A stretch of DNA of 64,000 bases from Bacteroidetes bacterium GWA2_40_15 (GCA_001768195.1 MENI01000097.1:4908-68907), one strand, 5' to 3'. Shown: positions 3,842-61,935, numbered from the stretch's first letter. Numbers and translations are program-made. Notes: a model not told the origin generated them from the sequence alone.

Positions 3842-4651
3842 TTATAGTGATTTTATCATCTCTGTCATAATGGTTGTCATGCGTGATTCTGTTTTTTCGG
3901 CCTCAATCTGGACTGATTCGTGGGTAACATATTCTATCTTCCCTTCAATTCCCAGATCGGTAATTACACTTACTGCAAAGCATGGAAGGTTCATATGCCT
4001 GGCAACAATTACCTCAGGGGTAGTTGACATGCCAACTGCGTCTGCACCAATAATCCTGAAATATCTGTATTCGGCAGGAGTTTCAAAAGTGGGTCCGCTG
4101 GTTGCCAGATATACACCTTTATGTATCCTTATTTTATTTTCACCTGCAATAATCAGGGCTTTCTTTATAAGGTATTTGTCGTATGCCTCGCCCATATCGG
4201 GGAATCGTACGCCAATCCTGTCATCGTTCTGCCCTAGAAGCGGATTAGGAAGAAGGTTAATATGGTCGGTTATTACCATAATATCTCCTATCTGAAATTC
4301 CGGGTTAACACCGCCAGCTGCATTCGACAGAAACAGGCATTTGATTCCGAGGTACTTCAGGATTCTCACCGGGAATGAAACCTGCTCCGGGCCATAACCT
4401 TCATAATAGTGAAACCTGCCTTTCATTGCAACTATCTTTCTTCCTCCGAAATCACCATAAATAAGTTTCCCATCATGCCCTTCAACTGTAGATACCGGGA
4501 AGTTGGGAATGTTCCTGTAATCAATCTCAATACAGTTTTTCATCCTTGCTGTAAGTCCGCCAAGTCCGGTGCCCAGTATTATACCTGCATCAGGATCAAT
4601 GATCCCTTCAGATCTCAGAAACTCTGTTGTTTCGTTTATTTTTTCTAACAT
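3842..4651 (-). CDS. punA: purine nucleoside phosphorylase (trimeric PNP/inosine-guanosine type)
   Basis: 269 aa. Motifs ILGTGLGGL, GRFHYYEGY, FLSNAAGG and VGMSTTPEV are typical of the PNP-I family. Confidence 0.85.
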   Translation of the reverse strand: MLEKINETTEFLRSEGIIDPDAGIILGTGLGGLTARMKNCIEIDYRNIPNFPVSTVEGHDGKLIYGDFGGRKIVAMKGRFHYYEGYGPEQVSFPVRILKYLGIKCLFLSNAAGGVNPEFQIGDIMVITDHINLLPNPLLGQNDDRIGVRFPDMGEAYDKYLIKKALIIAGENKIRIHKGVYLATSGPTFETPAEYRYFRIIGADAVGMSTTPEVIVARHMNLPCFAVSVITDLGIEGKIEYVTHESVQIEAEKTESRMTTIMTEMIKSL

Positions 4652-5705
4652 ATTCGATTATAAGTTTATTAAATTCAGCAGTGTCGTCATTCAAAAAACA
4701 GATTCCGACAGGGATGTAATAAAATGCCGACCTTATGGGGTCAGCAATATTAGTAAATTCCTTTAGCCTCACAGAGTCTTTTTCTGTTGTTAAGACAAAT
4801 TTCAAAGCTGTTTTAAGCTGATCGAATGCATTATAAACTGCATTCAGGTCTTTTTCCCGGAATGTATAGTGATCGGGATAGCGAAGATGTATTATCTCTC
4901 CGGCAGTCTCCTGAAGATATTCCTTCAGGGGGATTGGATTTGCAATTCCTGTGATGAGGACGACACCTGTTCCGTTAAGCTTTTTGAGGTCAGGAATTGG
5001 ACCTGATGATTCTTTTCTGTCAAAAAGCGGTACCGGCGGATTATATTTTATTGATGTAAAATAGAGGTTTTGATAAGGAGCTTTGTTTATCTCCTTCACA
5101 ATAAGTCTTCTTTGTATCGGATTTATATTAACAGGAGATTTTGTGATCAGTATTATATCTGCCCTCCTCATATTTGAAATACTCTCTCTGAGATTTCCAT
5201 AAGGAAGCATGTGGTCACTGATTACCGGCCTGTTAAAATCTGACAGAAGTATCGAAAACCCCGGTGTGATCCTGCGGTGCTGAAATGCATCGTCAAGAAT
5301 TATTACTTCTGTTTCAGGATGTAATTCCATGATTCTCCTGACCCCTTTAACCCGGTTTCTGTCAACAGCCACCAGAACATCGGGGTATTTCCGCGATATC
5401 TGTAATGGTTCATCACCTGATTCAGCTACAGTTGATGATGTTGTCACCACCCTGAAACCACTGCTGGTCCTCTTATATCCCCTGCTGAGTACCGCTACTT
5501 TGAAATTCTCTCGGAGCAATCCGGCCAGGTATTCAGCATGAGGGGTTTTCCCTGTTCCTCCTACAGTAATGTTTCCTACACATATTACAGGTAAACGGAA
5601 TTCAACAGAAGGTAATATCCCGGTATTATAGAGAAAATTCCTGATGACGGTAACCAGTCCGTAGATTAACGAAAGAGGATATAGAAGTATCCTGCCGTTT
5701 CCCAT
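4608..5705 (-). CDS. lpxK: tetraacyldisaccharide 4'-kinase
   Basis: 365 aa. P-loop VGNITVGGTGKTP and an LpxK-like N-terminal membrane helix. The 3' end overlaps the PNP start by 44 nt. Confidence 0.85.
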   Translation of the reverse strand: MGNGRILLYPLSLIYGLVTVIRNFLYNTGILPSVEFRLPVICVGNITVGGTGKTPHAEYLAGLLRENFKVAVLSRGYKRTSSGFRVVTTSSTVAESGDEPLQISRKYPDVLVAVDRNRVKGVRRIMELHPETEVIILDDAFQHRRITPGFSILLSDFNRPVISDHMLPYGNLRESISNMRRADIILITKSPVNINPIQRRLIVKEINKAPYQNLYFTSIKYNPPVPLFDRKESSGPIPDLKKLNGTGVVLITGIANPIPLKEYLQETAGEIIHLRYPDHYTFREKDLNAVYNAFDQLKTALKFVLTTEKDSVRLKEFTNIADPIRSAFYYIPVGICFLNDDTAEFNKLIIEYVRKNKRNNRVSEI

Positions 5706-17687: not shown

Positions 17688-19115
17688 CTAAAGTCTTTCT
17701 ATTACAAAGATGTCGTGCCTGTCGAGATTCAGCCAGTATTTGATAGAGTTCTTCCTGACCAGTTCCCAGTAAATGTCACTGTCGAGGCCATAGACAAAGT
17801 TTATCTCCTTTAGTTCATTGCTTATGAGCGATGCAATTTCAGGTTTAAGGGTCAGCCTTATTTTTCGGTTCATATAAATGAATTCGGCTGAAGGTAATGC
17901 AGGCGATTCATGCTTAACAGTAAGCAGACCGTGGCCCGGTGTTGCTCCGGTACTTACCTGGAGACCATCATTCATGCAGCTCATTGGAGGTTCGGAGCCT
18001 GCTGATGAGGTGACCATAAATTCATCCACCCCTGTATTGAAATATTCTCTGGCCCTGATCCCCATTTTAACACCTATTATGGCAAAAACACCAAGATGCC
18101 TGTGTAACTCATTTGCGATCACTCCTGACACCCATTCATCCAAACCGTATTTGTTGATTATATCCGTTACAGATGGTTCAATATCTGCGAAATAGAATGA
18201 AGGAGTCAGCGGAAATTCCTTTATAACCTGATTTCTTTCAACCGTTTCCCCTTTAAGTATCCGCAGAGTCTTTTCCCTGATCAGGCCTATGTCGGCAGGC
18301 GATGCAACAATGCCTTTCGCTGTTGTTTCGGCATTGAATAATTGAGGGTAATGCATGTAAACTGGTATCGCATCATCAGTCATTCCAAATGAAAAATTGT
18401 GGTTCTTTGCCTTTTCTGATGTAAAAAATTCTGTTAATCTCTTTGCATACGCAGAATGTACAAATGAGATATTGTTGTTTAGGTCAGCGTCATATAATTT
18501 CATGTCGCCTGTTCCTTTTACTACGGTTACCTGGATGCCACTTCCGAAAATTTTACTGACAGCCTGAGCATCAATCTTATAGTTAAAGCCCTTTTTGTCA
18601 TTCAGCCCGTCAGCGCTCCATATGATCCCTTTTACCTTTTGCCTGAACTGAGGGATCTCCGCATAAGCAGAAGCTGCAGTTGAGAGGCTTCCGAGGCATA
18701 CCATACTGATTTTATTATTCTCTGTGCTCAGTATTTCGCGTATAACACCAATACATTCAGGGGCTATATCTCCTGATAATTGATTTTCCTCTCCCCATAC
18801 ATAGTTCAATGCCAATGGGAGATCAGGCGATCTGAATTTACATGAAGTGTTTATCCCTACAGGTATGCCCTCGTGGTAAAATCCATTCAGAAGGCTTTTT
18901 ACTTTTACCCAGGCGGCCTTTGCATTCAGCGCTCCGGGTGAAACGGTTATTGCAAGCACCCTGATGTCGGGCGAGGCAAGCAGCATCGAAATTGCTTTCA
19001 TGTCATCTACTCCTGCATCAGTGTCAACTATGATATAATGCCGGGGCTTCCACGGATGTGAAAAAGCAGTAACAGCAAAACCAAACGTCAGCAGCAGAAT
19101 AAATATCCTTTTCAT
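17688..19115 (-). CDS. secreted fusion protein: inosine-uridine nucleoside hydrolase-like N-domain plus FmdE-like C-domain
   Basis: The ATG at 19115 (the track TTG is at 19124) gives signal peptide MKRIFILLLTFGFAVTAFS. The IUNH signature is IIVDTDAGVDDMKAI. The C-terminal ~150 aa (HRHLGVFAIIGVKMGIRA..SCMNDGLQVSTGATPGHGLL) follow the FmdE-domain pattern. Confidence 0.6.
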   Translation of the reverse strand: MKRIFILLLTFGFAVTAFSHPWKPRHYIIVDTDAGVDDMKAISMLLASPDIRVLAITVSPGALNAKAAWVKVKSLLNGFYHEGIPVGINTSCKFRSPDLPLALNYVWGEENQLSGDIAPECIGVIREILSTENNKISMVCLGSLSTAASAYAEIPQFRQKVKGIIWSADGLNDKKGFNYKIDAQAVSKIFGSGIQVTVVKGTGDMKLYDADLNNNISFVHSAYAKRLTEFFTSEKAKNHNFSFGMTDDAIPVYMHYPQLFNAETTAKGIVASPADIGLIREKTLRILKGETVERNQVIKEFPLTPSFYFADIEPSVTDIINKYGLDEWVSGVIANELHRHLGVFAIIGVKMGIRAREYFNTGVDEFMVTSSAGSEPPMSCMNDGLQVSTGATPGHGLLTVKHESPALPSAEFIYMNRKIRLTLKPEIASLISNELKEINFVYGLDSDIYWELVRKNSIKYWLNLDRHDIFVIERL

Positions 19116-19133
19116 AAGTGACAAATTTCTTAT

Positions 19134-19829
19134 ACTTAAAAATACAAAATAAAAATTGGAAAAAGTGATGTATTTTGTTTATATTTAAGTCGTTAACGCA
19201 AAAATCACAAACAAAAAAACATCACTTTAAAGATGAAAAATATAAAAAGAAAATAAAACGACCAAACAAAAGTTGTCAAAGCTTCATTTACAGGAAGTAA
19301 CATCACTAAATACGATGGACTGAATATGGTAGCAAAATACATGAATCGCCAAAACATCATAAGATCCATTAGCTCAACTTTTCCCATTGAGTGGCACAAT
19401 GCCACAAAGTTTTGTATCAACCCTGTTAAATCTGCCTTGCAGAATAGATTATTTAGCAGGATCAACCAGGTTTTGATGGCAATCACACTGGCCTCTATAA
19501 GTGGTATAGGTCAGATTTGTAGGATTGCCGCCTTTAGTTATAAGGCAAATGGATGGGACAAACCACGGGTATTTAAGGCCATGTGGATGGTAAAGGAATA
19601 GGTACGGGTTACCTATCTTGGACAGAAACGATATTACCGGTTTCCCAGTATGTTTGTTACATCAGCAGCTTTAATATGGATGCTATTGAATTGCATGAGC
19701 TTTACAAACAACGCTCTACCAGTGAGACATGGATTGAGCAGGTAAAAGGGCATGTGATGGCAGGGGAAACATTAACCTTGGCGAATTACGTTCCTTTAGC
19801 TCAAAAAATTCAATTTGAATATTTAAGTT
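19134..19829 (+). mobile_element. internally deleted IS remnant (IS4/IS1380-like DDE transposase fragments), copy 1
   Basis: The 88-nt left end 19134-19221 matches 22242-22329, with roughly ten mismatches by eye. The right end 19789-19829 matches 22578-22617. The termini are inverted (acttaaaaat.. vs ..atatttaagt). The broken frames include IELHELYKQRSTSETWIEQVKGHVMAGETLT. Confidence 0.7.
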
Positions 19830-19851
19830 TAACTCTTTATTTATATTTTCT

Positions 19852-22122
19852 ATGGATAACACGCTGATGAAATACAATCTGATTTTTGCATTATTCTTGA
19901 TGACCCTCTTGCTCACCGCCTGTACAAAGCAACCTGCGAAGATGGACGGGCGCGGCAAACCTGGATTTCGCGTTCGTTCCGACTTTGCTGCGACGTTAAA
20001 CTCTGAAGTAGGATGGGCTGGTGCACTGAATGAGAATGTTCCCATTTACGCAGACCAACCTTTCCGCATTCGATTTGAATTGGAGCGCCCTGCAGGACCA
20101 ACTAGTGGTCGGCAATTCCGGCTTCAGTACAGACTAAATAGCGGAGTCTGGACCAATGTCGAGGCACACGACTTCCCCCACCCGGAACGCTATATTAGTA
20201 TGAATTTTAAACAACTTGAGGCCGGCACGCAACCTGAGGGATGGACTGTTGTGAAGGGCAATTCCTCAGAATTGGTCGTAGTGACCGATAACCATCAGAA
20301 CGCTCTACGAGCCAAATCGGATAAAGAGCCGCTTGTATGGCTCTTCACCCCACCTTGGGAGGCTACAGAAATTGCATCTCAATTCCGATTGGCCCCTGAA
20401 AATCACCGCGGGATCGCGTTCGTTGTGGGCTATGCCGATATCAGTAACTACTGTCTCGTACAGCTCGAGCCTACACCTGGCACGATACGTGTGAGCCATA
20501 TTATTGATGGGATAGAAAGGATTCTCGTCGAGAGAACCACCGTTATTACTACTGGCCAATGGCTCGAAATCGAAATTGAAACCGAAAACCGCAGGATTGA
20601 AATTAATTTCCAGAATGATATGCTGGAAATGGATGTCAAGCTTGATACTGATATCCCGCACTCAAAACTTGGATTTCAGGTTCCGTCGAATAGTACAATC
20701 GATTTTCGGAAATTCTCCTTCAATGGAGAAGCCAAAACCCCGCGAATCAGTATAGTTACCTGCCCAGCCTACGAGCACGGCATGTCAACCAACGATCTGT
20801 TGAAAGGTTCGGCCGCACCATTCCAGGCTGGCACTGGTATTAGTTTCGTCGAATTTACGCCTGTATGGAGCGGCGCGAATGTTCATGGCGAGTTCGAATG
20901 GCCGGTGGTCATTCGCCGGTTTGCTGATGGGGCAGTGACCAACAATGAAGGTGATACATTCGAATTTAGGATGATCGACACTGAAGGAACCGCACTGGGA
21001 AATGAACATAATCCAGCACTCCGCCTGTCCATCCCGCTCGGCCATGTTGGCGGGACATTCGTAGAAACCCCTGGCCGGATCGGCCCTTGGCAGGCCTCCA
21101 ACGGAAATCTTTACTTCATCATGGAACCGACAGAGACGGATAATATGTTCATGATGATAAAGTCCACGGACAACGGACGTACCTGGTACGAAATGGATGG
21201 AGCAAACCGCCCCAGGACAAATGACCTCGAATCGGTTGACTCGCGACTATTGGATAACACGATTCATATTATTCACCAAGTGACCCAATCTGTGCGTTAT
21301 CATACTTTCCGTACGTCTGATCATCCAACCCACCCTGATACCTGGGCTATCCGGGACGAGTTGGCTGGATCCGTGAACGCCATCGCCCAGAATGCGTCGA
21401 TGGTAGTGCGCTCAGACGGAAGCATAGTCGCGTTTTATCTTGGTACAGAAAAAATACATTACAGTATACGCTCGCCCGAAGGCACATGGAGCCAGGTAAA
21501 AACACTTGATCTCGACCTTCAACCCAACCAGGCTGGGCCACAAGCAGTGCTCGGTGCAAACGACATTATTCATCTCGCCTATTATGGAACCGATGGCACC
21601 ATCTGGTATCGACGGTTTCTTCCCGATGGTACCTTCACGTCAAGGCAACAGGTAGCGACAGGTGCCGGGACTTCAAGGGCGGAATATGGCGCAGTGCTTC
21701 CACTTCTCTTTATTCCCCACAAGAATGAGGTCGTCATTATTTATCGGCTCTTAAGCGGGAACCTTTGGGAACGACGGATTGTAAATGATGCCCCGCCTAC
21801 GGATGCAGTCATGGTAACCGATCTAAGGGTGGTCACCGACGCCGTCGACTCACATCAAGCCGGTGCCGATGCTGCCATCGACGGCGAGACAGTGTATGCG
21901 ATTTTCATTGCTGAGTCTTCCCGAAGCATCCTCAGCACGCACGACAATGGTGGATGGCAACCTCCGAAGCTCCGGGTCGACAACATACTTGGATCGTGGG
22001 TCCGTGGAAACGTATACACCCGCAAAGATGGCATGAGAGTATATGGATACATCTATGATGCGGGCTCCGATGGCGGTACAGGCATGAATCGATTCAGTGA
22101 GCTTGTATTGAACGGCAGATGA
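19852..22122 (+). CDS. lipoprotein with ConA/LamG-like (DUF1080-like) middle region and BNR/Asp-box beta-propeller-like C-terminal half
   Basis: 756 aa with lipobox LLLTAC. Canonical Asp-box STDNGRTW at nt 21163-21186. The middle string GWTVVKGN..ALRAK..GIAFVVGY is jelly-roll-like. G+C and CG-dinucleotide content are visibly higher than in the flanks. Confidence 0.55.
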   Translation: MDNTLMKYNLIFALFLMTLLLTACTKQPAKMDGRGKPGFRVRSDFAATLNSEVGWAGALNENVPIYADQPFRIRFELERPAGPTSGRQFRLQYRLNSGVWTNVEAHDFPHPERYISMNFKQLEAGTQPEGWTVVKGNSSELVVVTDNHQNALRAKSDKEPLVWLFTPPWEATEIASQFRLAPENHRGIAFVVGYADISNYCLVQLEPTPGTIRVSHIIDGIERILVERTTVITTGQWLEIEIETENRRIEINFQNDMLEMDVKLDTDIPHSKLGFQVPSNSTIDFRKFSFNGEAKTPRISIVTCPAYEHGMSTNDLLKGSAAPFQAGTGISFVEFTPVWSGANVHGEFEWPVVIRRFADGAVTNNEGDTFEFRMIDTEGTALGNEHNPALRLSIPLGHVGGTFVETPGRIGPWQASNGNLYFIMEPTETDNMFMMIKSTDNGRTWYEMDGANRPRTNDLESVDSRLLDNTIHIIHQVTQSVRYHTFRTSDHPTHPDTWAIRDELAGSVNAIAQNASMVVRSDGSIVAFYLGTEKIHYSIRSPEGTWSQVKTLDLDLQPNQAGPQAVLGANDIIHLAYYGTDGTIWYRRFLPDGTFTSRQQVATGAGTSRAEYGAVLPLLFIPHKNEVVIIYRLLSGNLWERRIVNDAPPTDAVMVTDLRVVTDAVDSHQAGADAAIDGETVYAIFIAESSRSILSTHDNGGWQPPKLRVDNILGSWVRGNVYTRKDGMRVYGYIYDAGSDGGTGMNRFSELVLNGR

Positions 22123-22241
22123 AGTAAACTCCGGTGATTAGGCCGCCGAATTCGAAAAGCCAGATATGAGCTTCAAATAGAGGCGTAAAAATGATACAAA
22201 ATCACTCTAACTATTCGTGCTGTATCGCAAATTAAGATAAC

Positions 22242-22617
22242 ACTTAAAAATGTAAAATAAAAATTAGAAAAGGTGATGTATTATGTTTATATTTAAGTTG
22301 TTAACCTATAAATCACAAACAAAAAAACAACCACCAGCCGGAGGGTGCACCAGAAGAAAAATAGATTTACAAAGCAGGAACATCGCTGTTTTATTGAGTG
22401 GTTTATTGCCGTACCTGCAAAGATAACCAGAAACGGGCATCAAACAGAACTTAAAATGAATGAATATCAATTTTATAAAGCCGAATGGGAGGAGCTTGAC
22501 AGGCTCATTTAAACGGCATAAAAAGAAAGAAAGGAGGTAAATATGAGAACCAACACGAGAGTGTATGGACGAAGTACGATCCGTTAGCTCAAAAAAATCA
22601 ATTTGGATTTTTAAGTT
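22242..22617 (+). mobile_element. internally deleted IS remnant, copy 2 (same family and orientation as copy 1)
   Basis: It shares both ends with copy 1. The internal frame FIEWFIAVPAKITRNGHQTELKMNEYQFYKAEWEELDRLI* resembles the extreme C-terminus of IS4/IS1380-type transposases. At about 376 bp it is too short to be autonomous. Confidence 0.65.
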
Positions 22618-22742
22618 ATAAAATTACTGTTTTATATTATAACAATCTGTAACTGGTTTTGTCAGTTTTTATTGTGAAAATAATCACACTATGTTTCTTG
22701 TGAGAGATATTTGCATATCTTAAGCCTCAAATTTTTTAAATT

Positions 22743-24269
22743 ATGAAGAGATTTCTCTTATGGTTTTTACCGGGACTGATTGTAGGCGTTTTGCTGATAC
22801 TTGGTGGGGGTAAGGCAATAGATACAACTTCATCAAATGACTTTTGCATGTCGTGCCATATTCACCCCCTGGCCGATGCAGCCTGGAAGAAGTCAGTTCA
22901 TTATGATACGAAGTCAGGATCGCGGATCGGATGTGTTGAGTGCCATCTTCCTCCTAAAGGCGATAATTATTTATGGGCAAAAGCTACTACAGGATTAAGG
23001 GATCTTTGGAGCTATTGGACCAAGGACTCTGCATCGTTTAACTGGGAAGAGCGCGGAAGACTTGAAATTGCCAGGGGGCATGTTTTTGAGAGCAGCTGTA
23101 CTAAATGTCATGTGAACCTTTTCCCTGCGAAGCTTACAAAGGAAGGGGAGAATGCACATCTCTATTATACCCAGACAAAAAAGACCGATGAGCTTCACTG
23201 TATAAATTGTCATCTGAATGCAGGGCATCATATTGAAGGGTATACCCATGGAAGCAATGCAACTTTCGGAGCTACTTCTGCTGCGCCAAAAGAGATCTTT
23301 ACCGTACCTGCAGAAGTATCAGAATTCATAAATTACACCGAGAAGATACCCGGCTCTTCAGTTGCTTTCAATATGGTGGCTGTTCCGGGAGGTAAATTCA
23401 GAATTGGCAGTCCTGATGATGAACCATTCAGGAAGCCTGACGAAGGACCGAAACGTGAGGTGGAGATCAGCCCTTTCTTTATGGCCGAAATTGAAGTCAC
23501 CTGGGATGAATATCTTGCATTCTATGTACAGACTGCTGCAGAAGGTCGAACGACTGATACTGAGGGAACAAGAAAAATAAAGTCTGATAAGACCGATGCA
23601 ATTTCCGGAGCAACTCCTCCCTACGGACAACCCGATCAGGGATGGGGAATGGGAAGACGCCCTGCTATATCCTTCTCTTATCATGCCGCAGAAACATATT
23701 GTAAATGGCTTAGTTCCGTTTCCGGGAAAACTTACCGTCTGCCTACTGAAGCGGAATGGGAATATGCCTGCAGGGCAGGTTCTGATGGCCCATATTTCTT
23801 CCCCGGAGATCCAAATAAATTTCAAAAGACAGGACTGAAGGCTAAGCTCTCCAAAAACGATACTGCAGTTATAAATACATACGTTGTATATAAAGCAAAC
23901 AGCTTATCCAAGACGCAACCACCCGACAGAGCAAAACCCAATCCTTTCGGCCTGAGAAACATGCCGGGAAATGTTGCCGAATTCTGCTCAGACTGGTATC
24001 AGCCCGATGCCTATTCACTATATCCTGATGGGGTTGTGAAGGATCCGAAAGGACCTGATAGCGGTGATGAACATGTTGTAAGAGGGGGTTCATTCCAGAG
24101 CACTGCAGATGTTCTGAGAAGTGCGGCCCGCGATTATACCCGTACAGAAGCATGGCTGAAAACCGACCCTCAGATGCCAAAGAGCATCTGGTGGTACTCC
24201 GACTGTTTCAATGTTGGTTTCAGGGTAGTATGCGAGTTTGATGAGAAAACAGGAAATGTTTCACCATGA
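22743..24269 (+). CDS. membrane-anchored NapC/NirT-type tetrahaem cytochrome c fused to an FGE/SUMF1 (formylglycine-generating-enzyme-like) domain
   Basis: N-terminal TM helix. Four CxxCH motifs (CMSCH, CVECH, CTKCH, CINCH) within the first ~170 aa. The C-terminal ~300 aa carry FGE-sulfatase patterns (MVAVPGGKFRIGS, YRLPTEAEWEYACRAG, GNVAEFCSDWY, RGGSF). Confidence 0.8.
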   Translation: MKRFLLWFLPGLIVGVLLILGGGKAIDTTSSNDFCMSCHIHPLADAAWKKSVHYDTKSGSRIGCVECHLPPKGDNYLWAKATTGLRDLWSYWTKDSASFNWEERGRLEIARGHVFESSCTKCHVNLFPAKLTKEGENAHLYYTQTKKTDELHCINCHLNAGHHIEGYTHGSNATFGATSAAPKEIFTVPAEVSEFINYTEKIPGSSVAFNMVAVPGGKFRIGSPDDEPFRKPDEGPKREVEISPFFMAEIEVTWDEYLAFYVQTAAEGRTTDTEGTRKIKSDKTDAISGATPPYGQPDQGWGMGRRPAISFSYHAAETYCKWLSSVSGKTYRLPTEAEWEYACRAGSDGPYFFPGDPNKFQKTGLKAKLSKNDTAVINTYVVYKANSLSKTQPPDRAKPNPFGLRNMPGNVAEFCSDWYQPDAYSLYPDGVVKDPKGPDSGDEHVVRGGSFQSTADVLRSAARDYTRTEAWLKTDPQMPKSIWWYSDCFNVGFRVVCEFDEKTGNVSP

Positions 24270-24397
24270 AACCACATCATTAAATAGTTAAAAAACCTTA
24301 ACCTTCAGTATAATATTATATTTTATTATTTATATTTACAGAGGTTCAACCAAATTGCAGACTAATAATTCTTTTCATAAAACCTAACCTTATCAGT

Positions 24398-25744
24398 ATG
24401 AAAAAATTCAGCATTTCAAGACGTAATTTTCTTGGTAAAGCAGCAACAGCAGGTGTAGCAGGTATTGTGGTTCCATCAATCATTGCAGGCTGTTCACGCG
24501 AAAGTAAAAAGGTCGTTGCTGTTCCGACAATGCTTGACCAGGCTCCTGACGGGCCGGTGTTAAAAGCAGGTGTGATAGGTTGCGGCGGACGTGGAACCGG
24601 CGCTGCTATTAACTTTCTGAGTGCCGGCCCGAGTCTGCAGGTTACTGCATTGGCCGACACATTCCAGGATCGGGTTGATTCCTGCCGGGAAGCTATAAAG
24701 AAAGAAAAGGGACAGGATGTTCCCATTGAAAATTGCTTTGTTGGTTTCGATGCTTACCAGAAAGTAATTGATTCAGGAGTTGATATTGTAATTCTTGCCA
24801 CTCCTCCATATTTTCGTCCTGAGCACCTTGCTGCCTGCGTCCAGGCCAAGAAGCATATCTTTGCTGAAAAACCTGTTTGTGTTGATCCTGTTGGCGCAAG
24901 GTCAGTCATGGCAACTGCCCAGAAAGCAAAAGGACTTGAACTGAGCATTGCAACAGGTACCCAGAGGAGGCATCAGCGCGACTATGTTGCTACTTGGCAG
25001 CAGGTTGCACAGGGACTCATCGGGGATATCGTTGGAGGAACAGTATACTGGAATGGCGGCAAGCTATGGCATCGCGATCCAAACCCGAAATGGAGCGAAA
25101 TGGAATACATGATACGTAACTGGGTGAACTGGACCTGGCTTTCCGGCGATCACATTGTGGAACAGCATGTTCATAACCTCGATGTACTGAACTGGTTTAC
25201 AGGGTCACACCCGGTTAAAGCTGTTGGTTTCGGATCAAGGCTCAGAAGGGTGACAGGTGATCAGTATGATAATTTCAGTATAGACTATACCTTTGAAAAT
25301 GGAATTCATGCTCACAGCATGTGCAGGCAGATAAACGGCTGTGTCAACAACGTATCCGAAAGATTACAGGGAGCAAAAGGCTCCACAAACTGCAGGAACG
25401 TGGTTCTCGACTTAACCGGAAATGAACTCTGGAAGTACGGGTATCCGCTTGATAAAGACAGCAAACCAACCAACAATGTAAGCGTTGATCCTTATGTTCA
25501 GGAACATATCAACCTGGTTACCGCCATTCGCAGCGGTCAGGCATTCAACGAACTGGAAAACACCGCCATCTCAACTATGGTTGGCATTATGGGACGCATA
25601 TCGGCCTATACAGGCAAGGAGACAACTTACGAAGAGATGATGAACTCCGACCTTAAGCTTGGGCCTGAAGTATTTGATTTTGGACCTGTTAACATCCCTA
25701 AGGAAGTACCGGTCGCCGGTCTTCCATACGTTCCCGGGCAGTAA
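24398..25744 (+). CDS. Tat-exported Gfo/Idh/MocA-family oxidoreductase (probable lipoprotein)
   Basis: Twin-arginine leader SRRNFLGKAATAGVAG followed by IIAGCS. Rossmann motif VIGCGGRGTG and the EKP motif (FAEKPV). Confidence 0.8.
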   Translation: MKKFSISRRNFLGKAATAGVAGIVVPSIIAGCSRESKKVVAVPTMLDQAPDGPVLKAGVIGCGGRGTGAAINFLSAGPSLQVTALADTFQDRVDSCREAIKKEKGQDVPIENCFVGFDAYQKVIDSGVDIVILATPPYFRPEHLAACVQAKKHIFAEKPVCVDPVGARSVMATAQKAKGLELSIATGTQRRHQRDYVATWQQVAQGLIGDIVGGTVYWNGGKLWHRDPNPKWSEMEYMIRNWVNWTWLSGDHIVEQHVHNLDVLNWFTGSHPVKAVGFGSRLRRVTGDQYDNFSIDYTFENGIHAHSMCRQINGCVNNVSERLQGAKGSTNCRNVVLDLTGNELWKYGYPLDKDSKPTNNVSVDPYVQEHINLVTAIRSGQAFNELENTAISTMVGIMGRISAYTGKETTYEEMMNSDLKLGPEVFDFGPVNIPKEVPVAGLPYVPGQ

Positions 25745-25786
25745 CAAACAGTCGGTTTTAGATGATATAACCAATAAGATTCTGTT

Positions 25787-26737
25787 ATGATAGATTCAAG
25801 AAGGAATTTCATAAAAAGAGCCACATTAGCAGGAGCCGCCATTTTGGCTGCTCCTGCAGTTTTTGGATCCCAGGACGGGAAGAAGAAAACCAAAGCAAAA
25901 ACCCCCGATGCGGTTACACCATTCAAACTGAAGTATGCACCTTCAGTAGGGATGTTCCGCGAACATGCAGGCAATGATATTATCGATAATATCAAATTCT
26001 GTAATGACATGGGTTTCAGAGCCATGTTCGATAACGGGCTTATGGGTCGTTCTCCTGAAGACCAGGTAAAGTATCTGAGTGAGCTGCAGCGGTTAGGGAT
26101 GGACTTTGGGCCATTCGTCCTTTACGCCGATTTTTCAGTTACCTCATTTGTACTTAACAAGCCTGAGACACGTGAAATGCTCATCAATAAGATGAAAGAG
26201 GGTGTTGAGGTTTCAAAAAGGACCGGGGCAAAGCAGGCTCTTGTTGTTCCCGGAAGATATGATGAAAAGCTTGACCGCGATTTTCAGACTGCTAACGTGA
26301 TCGATAACCTGAGGTACTGTTGTGATATCGTTGAACCGGCAGGACTGACAATTGTACTGGAACCTCTCAATACCCTGAGGGATCATCCGGGTCTGTTCCT
26401 TACAGGAGTGCCGCAGACTTATTCAATTTGCAGGGCAGTGAACCGCCCCTCATGCAAAATAAACCTGGATTTATATCATCAGCAGATAACAGAGGGAAAT
26501 CTGATTCCGAACCTGGATGCTGCATGGAGCGAGATAGGAGCATTGCATTGTGGCGATAATCCTGGCAGGATGGAGCCAACAACCGGAGAGATAAACTATA
26601 AGAATGTTTTTAAGTTTATCTATCAGAAAGGCTACCAGGGAGTTATATGTATGGAGCACGGCATGAAAAACAGGACAAAGGAGGGAGAGGCAAGAGTTAT
26701 AGAGGCTTACCGTGAATGCGATAGTTTCGAAGTGTAA
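25787..26737 (+). CDS. Tat-signal xylose-isomerase-like TIM-barrel protein (sugar phosphate isomerase/epimerase family)
   Basis: Leader SRRNFIKRATLAGAAILAAPAVFG. The body resembles the hydroxypyruvate isomerase/AP_endonuc_2 fold (VLEPLN.., DLYHQQ). Confidence 0.7.
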   Translation: MIDSRRNFIKRATLAGAAILAAPAVFGSQDGKKKTKAKTPDAVTPFKLKYAPSVGMFREHAGNDIIDNIKFCNDMGFRAMFDNGLMGRSPEDQVKYLSELQRLGMDFGPFVLYADFSVTSFVLNKPETREMLINKMKEGVEVSKRTGAKQALVVPGRYDEKLDRDFQTANVIDNLRYCCDIVEPAGLTIVLEPLNTLRDHPGLFLTGVPQTYSICRAVNRPSCKINLDLYHQQITEGNLIPNLDAAWSEIGALHCGDNPGRMEPTTGEINYKNVFKFIYQKGYQGVICMEHGMKNRTKEGEARVIEAYRECDSFEV

Positions 26738-26758
26738 CTGATAACATTAAAACTAAAA

Positions 26759-27877
26759 ATGAAAAAGATTTTATATTTCGGACTGGTGCTGTTATTAGCA
26801 GTCTTGTTTTCAGATGCTGCCAATTGCCAGCTTTCCCGGCTCTATGTCGGAAAATATGCTAAGGAAGGCGAAAAAGGGCTTCACATAATTGATGTTGATC
26901 TTTCGAAGGGGACCTTTACCACAGTTTCAGAGTCGGATGCAGGTACAAATCCATCTTACTTTTGTATCTCAAAGAAAAGAAGCCTCATTTATGCTGTAAA
27001 TGAAGTCGGCAGGATAAAAGATGTGCGGGCGGGAAGCGTTTCTACTCTCCGCTTCGATGCAAAAAACGGGAAAACTGAAAAACTGAATGAAATTTCAGTT
27101 CCTAACGGAGGACCATGCTATATCTCTTTATCTGCTGATGAAGGCTTCCTCCTGGTAGCCAATTACGGAGGTGGTTCTGTAGCAGTTGTAAGGCTTGATG
27201 CAAACGGAATCCCCTTTGAAGTGAGCGATACAATAATATATAAAGGAGAGGAGGGCACTCGCTCCCGTGGCCATATGATAGCTCCCGGTTTAGGTGGGAA
27301 GAAGATATATGTGACTGACCTCGGCCTCGACAGGGTTGCAGTATATGACCTTGATCCAGTTTCAGGAAAGCTGAAGCTTATAAATAATGGATATGCAAAG
27401 CTTGCAAAAGGAGCAGGCCCGCGTCATTTTGCTTTCGGGAAAGACGGCACCAGAATGTATGTAATTAATGAGCTTAATTCAACCATGACTGTTTTTAATG
27501 TCGGTAACTCAGGGGAACTGAATGAAATACAGACACTTTCCACTCTCCCTGAAGGCTTCTCAGGAAAGAATTTCTGTGCCGATGTCCATGTAGCCGGGAA
27601 TGGTAAATATGTTTATGGTTCAAACAGAGGTCATAACTCTATCGTGACATATAAGGTCGGACCTGAAGGGAAACTCACTCTTGTTGGTCACACTTCATGC
27701 GGAGGAGACTGGCCGCGTAATTTTGTTCTCGATCCTTCAGGAAAATACCTTATAGCCGGAAATCAAAACTCCGGAAATATTTCACTTTTCAGCCTTGATA
27801 AAAAAACAGGACTTCCTCAGCTTCCATCAAAGGATTTTAAGATAGAATCCCCTTCATGCCTGAAGTTTATTGAGTAA
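26759..27877 (+). CDS. secreted 7-bladed beta-propeller lactonase (6-phosphogluconolactonase/YbhE-like family)
   Basis: Signal peptide, then repeated motifs NPSYF.., VANYGGGSVAV, GAGPRHFAF and GSNRGHNSI typical of Pfam Lactonase. Confidence 0.75.
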   Translation: MKKILYFGLVLLLAVLFSDAANCQLSRLYVGKYAKEGEKGLHIIDVDLSKGTFTTVSESDAGTNPSYFCISKKRSLIYAVNEVGRIKDVRAGSVSTLRFDAKNGKTEKLNEISVPNGGPCYISLSADEGFLLVANYGGGSVAVVRLDANGIPFEVSDTIIYKGEEGTRSRGHMIAPGLGGKKIYVTDLGLDRVAVYDLDPVSGKLKLINNGYAKLAKGAGPRHFAFGKDGTRMYVINELNSTMTVFNVGNSGELNEIQTLSTLPEGFSGKNFCADVHVAGNGKYVYGSNRGHNSIVTYKVGPEGKLTLVGHTSCGGDWPRNFVLDPSGKYLIAGNQNSGNISLFSLDKKTGLPQLPSKDFKIESPSCLKFIE

Positions 27878-40298: not shown

Positions 40299-41186
40299 TT
40301 ACAATCCTGACAATTCTGTAAATAATTCTTTTTGCTTATCCGTTAGATTCGTTGGGATTTTAATTGTATAGGTTACAATTAAATCTCCAAAATGCCCTTC
40401 ATTTTTATAAACAGGAAATCCCATTCCCTTTAATTTAATCATGCATCCATTTTGTGTTTCTGGCTTTACTTTCAGTTTTACCTTTCCTTTTAATGTATCA
40501 ATTGTAATTTCACCTCCCAATATGGCTTTGAATAAATCCAAATCAACTTTTATATATAAATCACTTCCCAAACGTTTAATATCTGATTGATTTGTTATTG
40601 AAAATGTAATATATAAATCACCATTTGGTCCGCCATTTACTCCAGGCCCCCCATGTGCGGAAATTTTAATTGTCTGACCATTTTCAATTCCTGCAGGAAT
40701 AGTTATCCGTATGGTTTTCCCGTTTACTGTTAAGGTTTGTTTATGGGTTTTATAGGCCTGCCTGAGATCGAGCTTTAATCCAGCATTAAAGTCTTTGCCT
40801 CTGTATTTAACGTGGCTGCTCCTTCCGGCACCTGCTGATCCACCAAACAAGGATTCAAAAAAATCGGAAAAATCCCCTTCCATCTGAGTACCGGAGTAAT
40901 CTGGGTGCTGATAATCTGATGTTTGTTCCTGATATTGTTTCGCTTTTTCAAATTCTTCAGCATGCTTCCAGTCCTTGCCGTACTGGTCGTATTTCTTGCG
41001 TTTCACGGGGTCACTCAATACTTCATTCGCCTCATTGATCTGCTGAAAATTCTTTTTTGCCTCCTTATCATTAGGATTTAAATCGGGATGATACTTTCTG
41101 GCTAATTTCCTATAGGCACTTTTAACGTCCTTTGCTGTGGCCGTTTTATTTAAACCTAAAATTTTGTAATAGTCTAAGAAAATCAT
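40299..41186 (-). CDS. cbpA: DnaJ-class curved-DNA-binding co-chaperone CbpA
   Basis: J domain YYKILGL..AYRKLARKYHPDLNP. No zinc-finger region. DnaJ C-terminal domains present. Confidence 0.85.
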   Translation of the reverse strand: MIFLDYYKILGLNKTATAKDVKSAYRKLARKYHPDLNPNDKEAKKNFQQINEANEVLSDPVKRKKYDQYGKDWKHAEEFEKAKQYQEQTSDYQHPDYSGTQMEGDFSDFFESLFGGSAGAGRSSHVKYRGKDFNAGLKLDLRQAYKTHKQTLTVNGKTIRITIPAGIENGQTIKISAHGGPGVNGGPNGDLYITFSITNQSDIKRLGSDLYIKVDLDLFKAILGGEITIDTLKGKVKLKVKPETQNGCMIKLKGMGFPVYKNEGHFGDLIVTYTIKIPTNLTDKQKELFTELSGL

Positions 41187-41691
41187 GTTTCTATTTCATA
41201 AACTGAAAAGGCTTTCCAGGGTTTTCGTTCACAGGTAATGGGGACTTACCCCAGGTCTCCCGCTTTGCGGGATCGGGGGCAATGCATAACAGATAGTTTT
41301 TATCTCTTAATTTTTATTATTAACCGTTAAGTTCCTAAATGCTTCTCCAAGTGCATCCATGTCGTTATTAAATTCACGCTTAAATGATTCCCAATTACTT
41401 TGACTCTTTTCATATGCATACAACTTTACTCTCAAATCCTTGTTTTGTTGTTCAAGAGTTGTAATGTTTTTAATGTTTAGAAATATTTGTTTTGATTTAC
41501 CTTGCTATTTTAAAGTATTAAGGCAGCAAAGGTCGTCTCAAATGTCTCAATAACCATTACAAAACCTTTAAGAAGAATTACCTAATTCACACAGTTTGTA
41601 TTGTGTAAATAAGAATCAGGAGAAATTGATTTAACACTAAACCTGATATCAGGTTAGGATTTTGAAATTCCTGGTTGTCCGGTAATGATAG

Positions 41692-42027
41692 TTATACGAT
41701 TATTACCGAATTTTCAGTTTGAAATTCGTTTGGAACAAGCTTATCCGCTTCTTTCTCATTCAGCCAGGAGTTTCCGTCTATGAGATACTTAAACTGGTAT
41801 TCCTTGCCTTTTTGCAGGGCAACAGTGACAGTATACTCACCGCCCTTGAGTTTTTTCATCGGAATACTATCTGTGTTCCAGTGATTAAAATCTCCTGCCA
41901 GGTTAACTTTTCTGGCAGAATTGACAATGTCTTTTGTCAGTTTGAATGTTACTTTACAAACCGGCTTTGTCTCGAAGAATTGTTTTTTCAGGCTCATAAT
42001 AATCTCTTTTAGTTTATACTGTTTCAC
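41692..42027 (-). CDS. stand-alone CBM48/AMPK-beta-type glycogen-binding domain protein
   Basis: VNLAGDFNHWN..YQFKYLIDGNSW pattern. The track start at 42027 is a GTG overlapping the upstream stop. An alternative ATG is at 41997. Confidence 0.65.
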   Translation of the reverse strand: MKQYKLKEIIMSLKKQFFETKPVCKVTFKLTKDIVNSARKVNLAGDFNHWNTDSIPMKKLKGGEYTVTVALQKGKEYQFKYLIDGNSWLNEKEADKLVPNEFQTENSVIIV

Positions 42028-59385: not shown

Positions 59386-59621
59386 GATATAAAAATTTAT
59401 TAAATTAATACTTATCGACAAAATAATGTAAAGCACTAATAGAGAACAAAATACTTATACGAGCATTGTGAAAAATTATCTAAATGTTGAGATTTATTAC
59501 CAAATATGACTTCAGATAGAAAATCAATAAGTTTGAATCGTAAAAATGATCATTGGAATAATTTATATGTAGAATTGATACTTATTCGATAATATTATAT
59601 CTTTTCAGAGAATAAAAGGGA

Positions 59622-60653: not shown

Positions 60654-60658
60654 AGGAT

Positions 60659-61369: not shown

Positions 61370-61550
61370 TCTTTAAGCCAATAGTAGAAATTGGAAGAAA
61401 TACACCATAATTTTTAGGATATAAATCCGACGGGACCTTCGATTTCAATTTGGTATCTTCTGAAGGATCTGCTTTGTATTGTGCCAGGATCGAAGTTAAT
61501 TGAGTTGATAGGAGGGCTAATGAAATCCTGTAAAAACACGAGTATACTCT

Positions 61551-61880: not shown

Positions 61881-61935
61881 TAGTTCCTTAATAATCAGGT
61901 TTATAAAGGATTACTTTGTGAACCTGTAAGAAGAG

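Follow-up and report, generated by a model that had tools for sequence, protein, structure and literature searches.

Background

ISEcp1 and ISPme1, two elements of the IS1380 family, mobilise DNA that adjoins them on the 3' side and have promoters directed outward (PMC9330008). The units that they form also offer earlier examples of a strong outward promoter and of 'promoter fixation' once most of the IS has been deleted (PMC9330008). In Bacteroides xylanisolvens, an IS1380-like element activates crxA (PMC9472255). The module described here shares with the composite transposons Tn10, Tn5 and Tn9 the presence of two direct copies of one IS around a cargo. It lies in a 64-kb stretch of DNA that was analysed as a whole (the window) and is best explained as a fossil composite (compound) transposon, in which two directly oriented IS1380-family copies surround one lipoprotein gene. 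We put the probability that the whole module was inserted as a unit by IS-mediated insertion at about 85%, a figure that covers one-step, two-step and one-ended routes alike.

A preliminary description of this DNA had proposed a horizontally acquired cargo gene carried or captured by an IS pair. That proposal is supported by composition, IS homology and an empty site, to which a TTATA duplication can now be added. Three observations named beforehand as contrary to it, namely ordinary GC content of the cargo, generic repeats and the same gene order conserved without repeats, were not encountered.

Results

Genomic setting and empty site

The order of parts in the window is nucleoside-hydrolase/FmdE gene (minus strand), copy 1 of the IS, lipoprotein gene (plus), copy 2 and NapC/FGE gene (plus). 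The main features are as follows.

17688..19115, minus strand: host gene, a nucleoside hydrolase and FmdE fusion of 475 aa from the ATG at 19115 (Pfam IU_nuc_hydro, FmdE)
19134-22616: IS-cargo-IS module of 3.48 kb (~3.5 kb), interpreted as a fossil composite (compound) transposon
22621..22742, plus strand: native upstream region of the NapC/FGE gene, with a conserved palindrome, TGTGAAAATAATCACA (22673-22688), from alignment with relatives
22743..24269, plus strand: host gene, a fusion of NapC/NirT cytochrome c and an FGE-sulfatase domain (profile matches)

The NapC/FGE gene heads a co-oriented run that includes GFO_IDH_MocA, AP_endonuc_2, lactonase and other genes. Orthologues of the nucleoside-hydrolase gene adjoin the FGE gene in relatives, and the rate of the window's copy is not accelerated compared with theirs. 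For the empty-site comparison proposed in the preliminary description, the FGE protein served to retrieve 80 related Bacteroidales loci. The two host genes stand back to back, divergently adjacent and mostly 110-160 bp apart, in about 50 of the 80 loci, these 50 spanning 75-87% FGE identity, while the cargo and the transposase are absent from all 80. Between the nucleoside-hydrolase ATG at 19115 and the left end of the IS there are 18 nt (19116-19133), the distance first estimated; together with 22618-22742 they are colinear with the 141-143-bp spacers of loci L027, L030 and L031. Set against these relatives, the module is an insertion into an otherwise intact site.

Module identity is 99.7-100% across 11 population contigs from several samples, and on this basis the cargo gene is fixed in the population. 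The IS-cargo-IS arrangement was not found at a second genomic location in a small sample of 45 IS-bearing metagenome loci, seven other cargo-bearing contigs, plasmids and viral contigs; the only other match, L114, is the same locus. No intact copy of the IS1380-family element is shown in this genome.

Two decayed IS1380-family elements

The following features belong to the two IS relics.

19134..19828, plus strand: IS1380-family relic copy 1, 695 bp (blastn and tblastn against intact L126, L138 and L119; weak NCBIfam IS1380 match)
19134..19148, plus strand: IRL of copy 1 (inverted-repeat pair)
19625..19777, plus strand: transposase remnant, aa 308-358, with a Y-2-R-3-E-6-K motif (YKQRSTSETWIEQVK), 84% identical to the intact protein
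19814..19828, plus strand: IRR of copy 1, with a subterminal TCAATTTG (19810-19817) facing the cargo
22242..22616, plus strand: IS1380-family relic copy 2, 375 bp (blastn and tblastn against intact elements)
22345..22512, plus strand: transposase C-terminal remnant, aa 381-435 and stop codon, 75% identical to the intact protein

The left direct repeat (19134-19221 and 22242-22329) matches at 90% over 88 nt, in agreement with the roughly ten mismatches reported initially, and the right direct repeat (19782-19829 and 22570-22617) matches at 88% over 48 nt, slightly longer than the blocks at 19789-19829 and 22578-22617 that had been pointed out. Both repeat motifs are present exactly twice in the window, with 0 expected from shuffles. 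The inverted termini noticed earlier on each copy are 15-nt arms, ACTTAAAAATACAAA and TTTGGATTTTTAAGT, which are 87-93% complementary and occur on both relics as well as on intact copies. IS limits were set by alignment to intact elements, which placed the right ends 1 nt short of their first coordinates.

The relic frames match IS1380 transposases of ~400 aa (E = 5e-77, 55-68% identity), and at the DNA level the relic pieces are 75-100% identical to intact elements. The intact relatives measure 1639-1640 bp and have a single 438-aa transposase ORF. The transposase of intact L126 scores 226 bits against NCBIfam NF033539 (IS1380; cut-off 180) over model positions 1-419; the relic frames are colinear with the same model at 43 bits, below the 180 cut-off as expected for fragments. 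Transposase homologues carry PF13701 and PF01609 and are named IS1380 family transposase. By homology, then, both relics are IS1380-family elements, and the repeats, for which a check of transposase homology had been suggested, are ends of such an element rather than generic intergenic repeats.

Copy 1 keeps nt 1-289, 286-360, 928-1173, 1464-1491 and 1611-1640 of the 1640-bp intact element, with ~40 nt of unmatched sequence between the first two pieces, and lacks nt 361-927, 1174-1463 and 1492-1610. Copy 2 keeps nt 1-88, 1241-1491 and 1611-1640 and lacks nt 89-1240 and 1492-1610. The copies had been said to retain different pieces of the transposase, and they do: of the 438 aa of the IS1380 protein, copy 1 has aa 1-87, ~277-309 and 308-358 (including YKQRSTSETWIEQVK) and copy 2 has aa 381-435. 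Both relics are non-coding. In copy 1 the transposase frame is broken by a stop at codon 8 and by frame shifts, and the two catalytic-D regions are missing from both copies, nt 361-927 of the element being deleted in each. Because of these losses in the catalytic-D regions and the stop at codon 8, we regard the module as currently immobile and lacking a functional transposase, a fossil and not an active transposon.

Since the two copies carry different deletions, they descend from two originally full-length elements, and a ~119-bp deletion near the right end that is common to both suggests a common parent variant. The common ends of the copies differ by 10-12%. At the left end copy 1 is the more diverged from active elements (85-87% identity, against 92-94% for copy 2), and the copies may not be identical twins or may be of different age.

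A foreign lipoprotein gene

The cargo occupies the interval between the two relics.

19829..19851, plus strand: AT-rich cargo leader of 23 nt, TTAACTCTTTATTTATATTTTCT, kept upstream of cargo homologues
19852..22122, plus strand: cargo, an intact lipoprotein gene of 756 aa with lipobox LLTAC (composition, homologues, fold prediction)
22123..22241, plus strand: 3' flank of 119 nt that came with the cargo; its homology to other contexts stops ~15 nt past the stop codon

With the IS end at 19828, the ATG at 19852 follows after 23 nt, one more than the 22 nt first given, and the start chosen by gene callers (ATG 19867) after 38 nt. No terminator-like site was found in the 3' flank at 22123..22241.

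The gene had been described as conspicuously rich in G+C and CG, and a composition check places it above every other ORF of the window. Its GC content is 50.4%, against a mean of 41.8% for the 40 other ORFs (maximum 47.8%; z = 2.5); GC3 is 51.7% against 39.3% (maximum 45.7%; z = 2.65), and CpG o/e is 1.10 against 0.67 (maximum 0.87; z = 3.9). As the composition outlier of the window, the cargo is a foreign gene. One could instead see the flanking blocks as ordinary intergenic repeats (REP- or MITE-like) unrelated to any transposase and the high GC as expression-linked codon bias. Short derivatives with both ends do exist elsewhere (L131, 349 bp; L115, 1257 bp), from which it follows that non-autonomous copies of the IS1380-type element occur. 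However, the blocks are colinear with both the ends and the coding sequence of intact 1640-bp elements, the cargo shows an increase in GC1, GC2 and CpG as well as in GC3, and the gene is missing at this locus from every relative sampled. We consider this explanation refuted.

A dN/dS of 0.19-0.28 indicates that the intact cargo is under purifying selection. Its 821 homologues are all named hypothetical, and no Pfam or NCBIfam family matches it above threshold. PDB profile matches, an AlphaFold2 model (pLDDT 80.5) and Foldseek were used to predict its architecture, which comprises a small N-terminal beta domain, a beta-sandwich resembling CBM66 and 3-keto-disaccharide hydrolase, and a BNR/sialidase- or lectin-like beta-propeller. 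The middle domain has a CBM66-like fold and scores 20.9 bits against PF06439 (3-keto-disaccharide hydrolase/DUF1080), under the cut-off of 26.8. The C-terminal domain combines the predicted propeller fold with one canonical Asp-box (STDNGRTW). NanB-type sialidases are the best full-length fold matches (TM 0.27-0.31), and the propeller alone is matched better by lectins (target-normalised TM 0.67-0.74). The product is accordingly modelled as a glycan-binding or sialidase-like beta-propeller lipoprotein.

Target-site duplication and route of insertion

19130..19134, no strand: left target-site duplication, TTATA, whose final base may just as well be assigned to the IS as its first
22616..22620, no strand: right target-site duplication, TTATA (flanks of the module)

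Target-site duplications in the IS1380 family are short, 4-5 bp (ISfinder value). The present element targets a 5-bp TNNNA: 35 of 37 independent insertions have T at position -4. Among the duplications, that of intact copy L153 is perfect (TTGTA / TTGTA), those at L126 and L138 match at 4/5 positions, and L119 is irregular. The outer flanks of the module match (TTATA / TTATA) and the inner flanks, TTTAA and TAACA, differ, so neither IS copy has a duplication of its own. A 5-bp duplication around the whole module, and around neither copy, therefore points to arrival as one IS-cargo-IS unit that was later immobilised. TTATA is a favoured target (4/36 sites) and the chance of a shared 5-mer at two random sites is P ~0.04; taken alone, the match is modest evidence for unit insertion.

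Exactly matching outer and non-matching inner flanks are also what a two-step history predicts. A single IS1380 copy would have entered at TTATA first, and a circular or linear molecule with IS and cargo (a translocatable unit or cointegrate) would have joined it, through either replicative transposition or homologous recombination inside the IS, leaving IS-cargo-IS inside the original duplication. ISPme1 of the same family is reported to move replicatively (PMC9330008), and the fact that copy 1 has diverged further than copy 2 from active elements fits different histories. Such a history needs two events where one suffices, however, and its intermediate, a solo IS at the site, is absent from the relatives (80 loci) and from population variants (11 contigs); the right-end deletion common to both relics again suggests a common parent variant. 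We judge the two-step history to be fairly unlikely, and retain single-step entry of the unit as the working reading.

Cargo homologues in other contexts

Cargo homologues at 82-87% nt identity occur in six distinct unrelated contexts (seven contigs) in low-GC Bacteroidota, and in all six they are GC-richer than their flanks. Synonymous divergence (dS) between the cargo and these homologues is 0.34-0.58, whereas the host genes are saturated against their nearest relatives (dS > 2). This disparity weighs heavily against a native lipoprotein gene that acquired two independent IS insertions beside it and was lost in relatives. A TNNNA-type 5-mer does lie beside each IS end, but only the outer pair matches, and no matching duplication surrounds either copy singly; the gene is also a compositional outlier, and the ~50 relatives with adjacent host genes have a spacer colinear with the window's flanks. 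A native origin is effectively refuted and can be given only a very small probability.

The cargo leader (23 to roughly 30 nt) is conserved in five of the six other contexts, the exception being L158. No IS adjoining the cargo gene was detectable by BLAST in these contexts (seven contigs). Upstream of the homologues at L108 (AATCAATTTGG, p = 0.0015), L109 (p = 0.01) and L159 (p = 0.06) there are possible right-end vestiges of the IS. These matches are short and AT-rich and may alternatively represent a shared promoter motif.

The vestiges bear on a further route, an ISEcp1/ISPme1-style one-ended mobilisation in which copy 1 alone captured the gene and its transposase used the downstream IRR of a second IS. 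An IRR ~23 nt upstream of a co-oriented cargo, with a 5-bp duplication, is the classic ISEcp1 layout (PMC9330008), and an intact copy at L020 lies 21 nt upstream of a co-oriented Ni_insertion gene. Yet the distal boundary of the module is a genuine second IS with both ends and not a degenerate IRR-like sequence, and a promoter motif could account for the vestiges as well. We judge one-ended capture to be distinctly unlikely and return to a unit bounded by two complete elements.

Somewhat speculatively, this IS1380 lineage may carry the lipoprotein gene habitually, and the capture may not be a one-off, to judge from the GC-rich islands in six contexts, the leader in five of them and the possible right-end vestiges in three lineages. 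The same proposal would make the module an ISEcp1-style unit that spreads a non-resistance, glycan-acting surface protein in environmental Bacteroidota, with a promoter that is an IS fossil and with IS termini co-opted to re-promote the nucleoside-hydrolase gene. The two parts are offered jointly, as an idea with perhaps a minor chance of being correct.

Putative promoters at the IS ends

22619..22626, minus strand: displaced putative -7 box of the nucleoside-hydrolase gene, TAATTTTA (motif match only)

L030 and L031 have a perfect -7 box, TAATTTTG (TAnnTTTG), 18 nt from the ATG in each. The insertion occurred exactly at this putative box, which is now 3.5 kb from the nucleoside-hydrolase gene. 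Neither IS end has a perfect outward match to the Bacteroidetes-type TAnnTTTG; the matches found there carry one mismatch (TCAATTTG at 19810-19817). Matches of sigma-70 type are at chance level (11 found, 8.2 expected). Copy 1 alone has a substitution that gives rise to TTATTTTG, 29 nt from the nucleoside-hydrolase ATG. IS-borne outward promoters for the nucleoside-hydrolase gene and the cargo are plausible. The NapC/FGE gene has kept 125 nt of native conserved upstream region and thus need not depend on the IS.

Discussion

We propose that, in a donor genome, two direct copies of a ~1.64-kb IS1380-family IS came to flank the lipoprotein gene, with the right end of the upstream copy ~23 nt from the cargo start. 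A transposase working at the two outer termini (IRL of copy 1, IRR of copy 2) would then have moved the 3.48-kb unit, probably in one step, into a TNNNA target (TTATA) with duplication of 5 bp. The site was the ~140-bp divergent promoter region between the nucleoside-hydrolase/FmdE and NapC/FGE genes. Most of the transposase gene was lost from each copy afterwards by independent internal deletions, point mutations and stop codons, and this loss in both copies froze the module in place. Insertion would have cut the nucleoside-hydrolase gene off from all sequence upstream of -18, including its probable -7 box; since the gene is still conserved, its transcripts most likely start in the left end of copy 1 or pass through it. 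For the cargo, the most likely promoter lies in the right end of copy 1 or in the gene's own short leader.

With both IS copies since decayed, the module illustrates gene capture by an IS clearly but in an ordinary way, as one more case of a kind already known, and it leaves the understanding of transposons unchanged. Away from the clinical resistance literature, it offers a clean natural case in which an IS1380-family element brought one foreign gene into the chromosome of an environmental Bacteroidales, and almost the whole course of events can be retraced, from the empty site and the 5-bp duplication to the separate decay of each IS copy and the retention of the cargo under purifying selection. 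What is gained is a TNNNA target-site rule for an uncharacterised IS lineage, and a widespread unannotated lipoprotein family (821 homologues) flagged as horizontally mobile and probably glycan-related. The nucleoside-hydrolase gene adds a candidate case of promoter replacement, because the insertion hit the probable -7 box of a gene still under normal constraint.

Among characterised proteins, the cargo resembles GH33 sialidases with an N-terminal lectin domain (NanB) and PLL/PHL-type lectins in its predicted lectin-like beta-sandwich and beta-propeller (Foldseek E ~1e-10 to 1e-12), with one canonical Asp-box and a CBM66-like middle domain. It differs from them in sequence (8-14% identity) and in overall superposition (global TM 0.26-0.36), and the likeness is one of predicted fold.

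As in Tn10, Tn5 and Tn9, the duplication surrounds the whole unit and not the single IS copies, and the empty site is kept in relatives. Unlike those transposons, the module has an IS of the IS1380 family, better known for one-ended capture, a cargo that is an uncharacterised surface lipoprotein and not a resistance gene, and a host among uncultured groundwater Bacteroidales in which both IS copies are dead.

With the ISEcp1-blaCTX-M and ISPme1 units (TMos), the module has in common the IS1380 family, an IRR tens of nt upstream of a co-oriented gene and a 5-bp duplication. The distal boundary of those units is a surrogate IRR; that of the module is copy 2, with true IRL and IRR and a transposase C-terminus. 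The module-type transposase is also distant from ISEcp1, for none of its tblastn matches to the numerous enterobacterial plasmids (presumably ISEcp1) reaches 60% identity. A strong outward promoter has precedent in ISEcp1 and ISPme1; that of the module is putative.

The closest parallels by host are the crxA (PMC9472255) and cfiA cases in Bacteroides, likewise Bacteroidota with an IS immediately upstream of a gene that would be expressed from a promoter within the IS, the element being IS1380-like in the case of crxA. In those cases a single intact IS stands before resident or island genes, with 5'-RACE evidence, and the module is known from sequence alone. In the module, unlike in those cases, the IS pair appears to have delivered the gene, and the left IS end also abuts a divergent host gene.

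Two decayed IS1380 copies flank the lipoprotein gene

The preliminary description had read this region as a composite-transposon-like module, in which a GC-richer foreign lipoprotein gene (the cargo gene) lies between two directly repeated insertion sequence (IS) relics. The features concerned are as follows.

Features of the module and its host neighbours
17688-19115 (-), hydrolase gene, a nucleoside-hydrolase/FmdE fusion
19134-19828, copy 1, 695 bp; keeps intact-element nt 1-289, 286-360, 928-1173, 1464-1491 and 1611-1640, lacks nt 361-927, 1174-1463 and 1492-1610; transposase aa 1-87, ~277-309 and 308-358 kept
Junction upstream of the cargo gene: IS right end followed by TTAACTCTTTATTTATATT
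19852-22122 (+), cargo gene, 756-aa lipoprotein with lipobox LLTAC
Junction downstream of the cargo gene: cargo 3' flank followed by ACTTAAAAATG
22242-22616, copy 2, 375 bp; keeps intact-element nt 1-88, 1241-1491 and 1611-1640, lacks nt 89-1240 and 1492-1610; transposase aa 381-435 kept
22743-24269 (+), NapC/FGE gene

A repeat finder recovered both block pairs that had been aligned by eye, as direct repeats of 88 nt (19134-19221 and 22242-22329, 90%) and 48 nt (19782-19829 and 22570-22617, 88%), together with the inverted termini of 15 nt (ACTTAAAAATACAAA / TTTGGATTTTTAAGT). Searched as a degenerate pattern, each block occurs exactly twice in the 64-kb window, and shuffles expect none. Pfam gave no match on the relic open reading frames (ORFs) at 19326-19601, 19583-19867 and 22345-22512; NCBIfam gave weak, colinear IS1380 matches, at positions 306-345 (copy 1) and 382-417 (copy 2) of a 419-position model. 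Identification of the transposase required a pseudo-protein joined from the open relic frames, which matched proteins of ~400 aa with 55-68% identity (E = 5e-77). These proteins carry PF13701 and PF01609, are named 'IS1380 family transposase' and come from Bacteroidales, Prolixibacteraceae and Mariniphaga. The repeats are thus IS relics with transposase homology, and the two copies hold different pieces of the transposase, as had been proposed.

The best intact references, four loci (L126, L138, L145 and L112), are 1639-1640 bp long and encode a 438-aa transposase at nt 100-1416 that scores 226 bits against NF033539 (cut-off 180) with the whole model covered. Three other intact elements (L024, L025 and L026) were rejected as references for the IS ends, their left ends being unrelated or nested. 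Downstream of the transposase stop, intact elements also have a conserved non-coding stretch of ~225-245 nt (L020:4213-4453; L126:8508-8731), including GGAGGTAAATATGAGAACC... and GGAGTTAAACCAAATTGGCC.... Short derivatives that keep both IS ends occur in other metagenomes (L131:5051-5406 (-), 349 bp; L115:15-1271, 1257 bp), so internally deleted, possibly non-autonomous copies seem common in this IS lineage.

Copy 1 has a stop at codon 8, and its kept transposase pieces lie in two different reading frames. The region for both catalytic aspartates is gone from copies 1 and 2, so neither can make transposase. Because their deletions differ, the relics descend from two full-length copies. Both lack a ~119-bp segment between two GCTCAAAAAA repeats that is present in 6/6 intact elements examined, a loss that reflects either shared ancestry or recurrent repeat-mediated deletion. 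The segment belongs to the conserved stretch after the transposase stop and might hold a small ORF, an RNA or a transposase-binding site. Within copy 1, ~40 nt at 19423-19463 are unmatched in intact elements. The segments on either side both align to reference nt 284-289, and the stretch may be a small duplication or insertion.

The module occupies a site that is empty in relatives

Look-up of the exact neighbour proteins returned contigs of one groundwater population only, with identical structure in all and no empty site; in the 11 population contigs compared, identity over the module is 99.7-100%. The exact cargo protein was found on only one 3-kb contig, broken within the IS relics. A scan with the NapC/FGE protein, taking one genome per species, retrieved 80 related Bacteroidales loci at 75-87% amino acid identity, and tblastn of the window proteins detected neither cargo nor transposase in any of them. 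Conservation of the gene order without repeats but with the cargo gene kept, which would have spoken against acquisition, was therefore not seen. In about 50 of the 80 loci the hydrolase gene divergently adjoins the FGE gene across a spacer of mostly 110-160 bp, which supplies the empty site that had been suggested as a check. When 19116-19133 is joined to 22618-22742, the product can be aligned over its full length with the spacers (141-143 bp) of the closest relatives (L027, L030 and L031); the reconstructed site ...TTTCTTATAAAATTAC... corresponds to ...GGACCATAAAATTAC... in L027. Since the relatives' spacer is colinear with the rejoined flanks, all of 19134-22616 is an insertion in a short divergent promoter region.

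A duplication surrounds the pair and follows the target rule of the IS

On the outside, TTATA flanks the module at both ends (19130-19134 and 22616-22620); on the inside, the IS ends adjoin TTTAA and TAACA, so that the individual copies are without duplications of their own. A duplication that brackets the pair but neither single copy is what a composite transposon leaves when it is moved by its outermost ends.

The target rule was derived from a metagenome scan with the IS left-end core, which gave 45 loci (L111-L155) with 37 distinct insertion sites. The base at -4 from the first IS base is T at 35 of the 37 sites, with adjacent positions mixed, and the mirror A is present in 9/10 right flanks, counted by eye rather than by tool. 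Together these imply a strict rule for this IS1380 lineage, a TNNNA target with a 5-bp duplication (equivalently 3 bp, with the terminal A and T assigned to the IS). The commonest targets are TAATA and TTATA. Among intact copies, L153 is flanked by TTGTA on both sides, L126 and L138 agree at 4/5 positions, and L119 is irregular. A 4-bp model (IS = ACTT...AAGT) was discarded because it does not fit; the 5-bp TNNNA model does. Left-end insertion sites adjoin gene starts (e.g. at 3, 11 and 43 nt) as well as gene ends, and the survey showed no systematic preference for gene starts.

The chance that two random sites share a 5-mer is P = 0.04, and TTATA accounts for 4/36 sites, so the TTATA match by itself is modest evidence, to which the colinear empty site adds weight. 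Two other routes could reach the same end state. A solo IS could have inserted first, followed by a cointegrate or translocatable-unit step, but no solo-IS intermediate was found at this site among the 80 related loci or the population contigs. An ISEcp1-style event employing the right terminal inverted repeat of the downstream copy could also have produced it. As for the composite transposon itself, no second location of the module was found in the metagenome and population contigs or in the other cargo contexts compared.

The cargo gene is compositionally foreign and recurrently transferred

As had been noted by eye, the cargo gene is richer in G+C and in CG dinucleotides than its surroundings. 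Its GC (50.4%), GC3 (51.7%) and CpG observed/expected ratio (1.10) are the highest of the 41 ORFs in the window, the others averaging 41.8% (maximum 47.8%), 39.3% (45.7%) and 0.67 (0.87), respectively. High-expression codon bias was rejected as the source, because GC1, GC2 and CpG are also raised and the locus is without the gene in relatives. Elsewhere in the window, several ORFs in 57580-62768 and 40299-43331 have markedly low GC (32-39%, window mean 41.4%) and low CpG, with a ratio of 0.36-0.53 for those in 59622-62768; these may be other acquired or fast-evolving regions.

Homologues of the cargo protein number 821, all unannotated; among them are proteins with 60-78% identity that bear the labels candidate division KSB1, Verrucomicrobia, Desulfuromonas and Vicinamibacteria. 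At 82-87% nucleotide identity, homologues lie on seven other contigs, representing six distinct contexts (L109 and L156 overlap); the cargo-bearing loci listed at this identity are L107, L108, L109, L110, L156, L157, L158 and L159. In every other context recovered, the homologue has ~49-50.5% GC and the flanks 31-45%, the exception being L159, where the adjacent BNR_4 gene also has a high GC (52.6%). Conservation around the homologues is limited to ~15-35 nt upstream and ~15 nt downstream, and no IS was detectable beside the gene on these seven contigs. This is the behaviour of a single gene transferred repeatedly as a very tight unit, and no vehicle is visible in the other contexts; the cargo gene was not found in viral contigs or in plasmids.

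Synonymous divergence of the cargo gene from its 82-87% homologues is low (dS 0.34-0.58), and host genes compared with their nearest relatives are saturated (pS 0.70-0.73, dS > 2). Transfer of the cargo gene between genomes is therefore much more recent than the divergence of the hosts. With a dN/dS of 0.19-0.28, the gene is under purifying selection here.

In three independent homologues, the cargo leader is immediately preceded by a short string resembling the IS right end: AATCAATTTGG (L108:5961-5979, p = 0.0015), TCAAATATATCAATTT (L109:53-69, p = 0.01) and TGGATATTTAA (L159:2363-2374, p = 0.06). The strings may be what is left of an ancestral IS1380 next to the gene, or equally a shared promoter motif. 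They hint that the lipoprotein family habitually travels with this IS lineage, carrying a fixed IS-derived promoter, a reading that we consider unlikely.

The AlphaFold2 model of the cargo protein (pLDDT 80.5, pTM 0.65) has a small beta domain at the N terminus, followed by a beta-sandwich and, at the C terminus, a beta-propeller. The protein also has invariant Arg, Asp, Glu and His residues. Foldseek placed NanB-type sialidases first for the full-length model (E = 6e-12, with a TM of only ~0.3), matched the propeller alone to PLL/PHL lectins (target-normalised TM 0.67-0.74) and found the sandwich to resemble CBM66. A PDB-sequence profile search agreed weakly (levanase CBM66 and a BNR/Asp-box protein), and a PF06439 match fell under the Pfam threshold. 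Our best guess from the predicted fold is a surface glycan-binding or glycan-cleaving lipoprotein.

The insertion separated a shared promoter region

As described, 18 nt separate copy 1, at its left end, from the hydrolase ATG (19115). The cargo gene was likewise correctly placed close to copy 1, its ATG being 23 nt from the IS right end (19828) rather than 22 nt. Two other intact elements show IS-gene geometry matching that of copy 1 and the cargo gene: L020:2795-4453 ends 21 nt before a co-oriented Ni_insertion (LarC-like) gene (4475-5647), and a copy in L025 (1686-3876) has its right end ~240 nt before a co-oriented 3keto-disac_hyd and GFO_IDH_MocA pair.

On the hydrolase strand, L030 and L031 carry a -7 box that matches the Bacteroidetes motif perfectly (TAATTTTG, read from the sequence). 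It is 18 nt away from their hydrolase ATG, precisely where the insertion occurred in the window. Its window counterpart, TAATTTTA (22619-22626), is now beyond the far side of the module, which agrees with the earlier suggestion that a putative native hydrolase promoter was displaced. The hydrolase gene is nevertheless intact. Relaxed selection after promoter loss was rejected, since its outgroup distances (62-63% identity) equal those of its relatives and constraint is thus not relaxed. Judged by this conservation, the gene must still be expressed, and the simplest source would be transcription that starts in, or passes through, the left end of copy 1. Outward promoters are documented in the IS1380-family elements ISEcp1 and ISPme1 (PMC9330008) and in an IS1380-like element upstream of crxA in Bacteroides xylanisolvens (PMC9472255).

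At IS positions 11-12 (window 19144-19145), copy 1 has AC, unique among the 37 distinct-site left ends; GT stands there in copy 2 and in all other left ends examined but one, which has TT. On the minus strand, the change creates TTTG within TTATTTTG (19152-19145), at a distance of 29 nt from the hydrolase ATG. This string is suggestive as a promoter without matching the consensus, and the change may be a post-insertion, promoter-improving one. On the IS right end, TCAATTTG lies 34 nt from the cargo ATG. A Bacteroidetes-motif scan found no perfect outward TAnnTTTG from the IS ends, and scans for sigma-70 promoters (11 found against 8.2 expected) and terminators (5 against 4.3) were at chance level. 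Rfam matched nothing in 18900-22900 and only one tRNA in the whole window.

Of the native sequence upstream of the NapC/FGE gene, 125 nt remain. They hold a perfect palindrome of the CRP/FNR type at 22673-22688, TGTGAAAATAATCACA (TGTGA-N6-TCACA), ~55 nt before the gene. It is conserved in L028, L030 and L031 as TGTGAAAATTTTCACA, and L027 has the slight variant TGTGAAATATTTCACA. The palindrome was probably a regulator site common to both divergent genes before the insertion split them.

No terminator-like site was found after the cargo gene, so read-through into the FGE operon is possible. The products of this operon (22743-27877) are a NapC/NirT cytochrome c-FGE fusion, an oxidoreductase (GFO_IDH_MocA) that probably has a Tat-type leader, a xylose-isomerase-like protein (AP_endonuc_2) and a lactonase. 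The middle domain of the cargo protein is of the DUF1080/3-keto-disaccharide-hydrolase-like type, and such domains are often found with GFO_IDH_MocA-type oxidoreductases; a functional link between cargo and operon is conceivable.

Comparison with known systems

Like a composite transposon, the module has two copies of one IS flanking a cargo gene and a duplication around the unit only, with the empty site kept in relatives. With no functional transposase of its own, it is a fossil rather than a currently mobile element. ISEcp1-type transposition units resemble it in family, orientation, spacing and duplication length, but the module has no surrogate right end, the defining feature of such units, because a true second IS is present. 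The module is a well-documented case of a known kind, slightly unusual in that an IS1380 element is in a two-copy configuration and in that an environmental member of the Bacteroidales carries a cargo gene unrelated to resistance.
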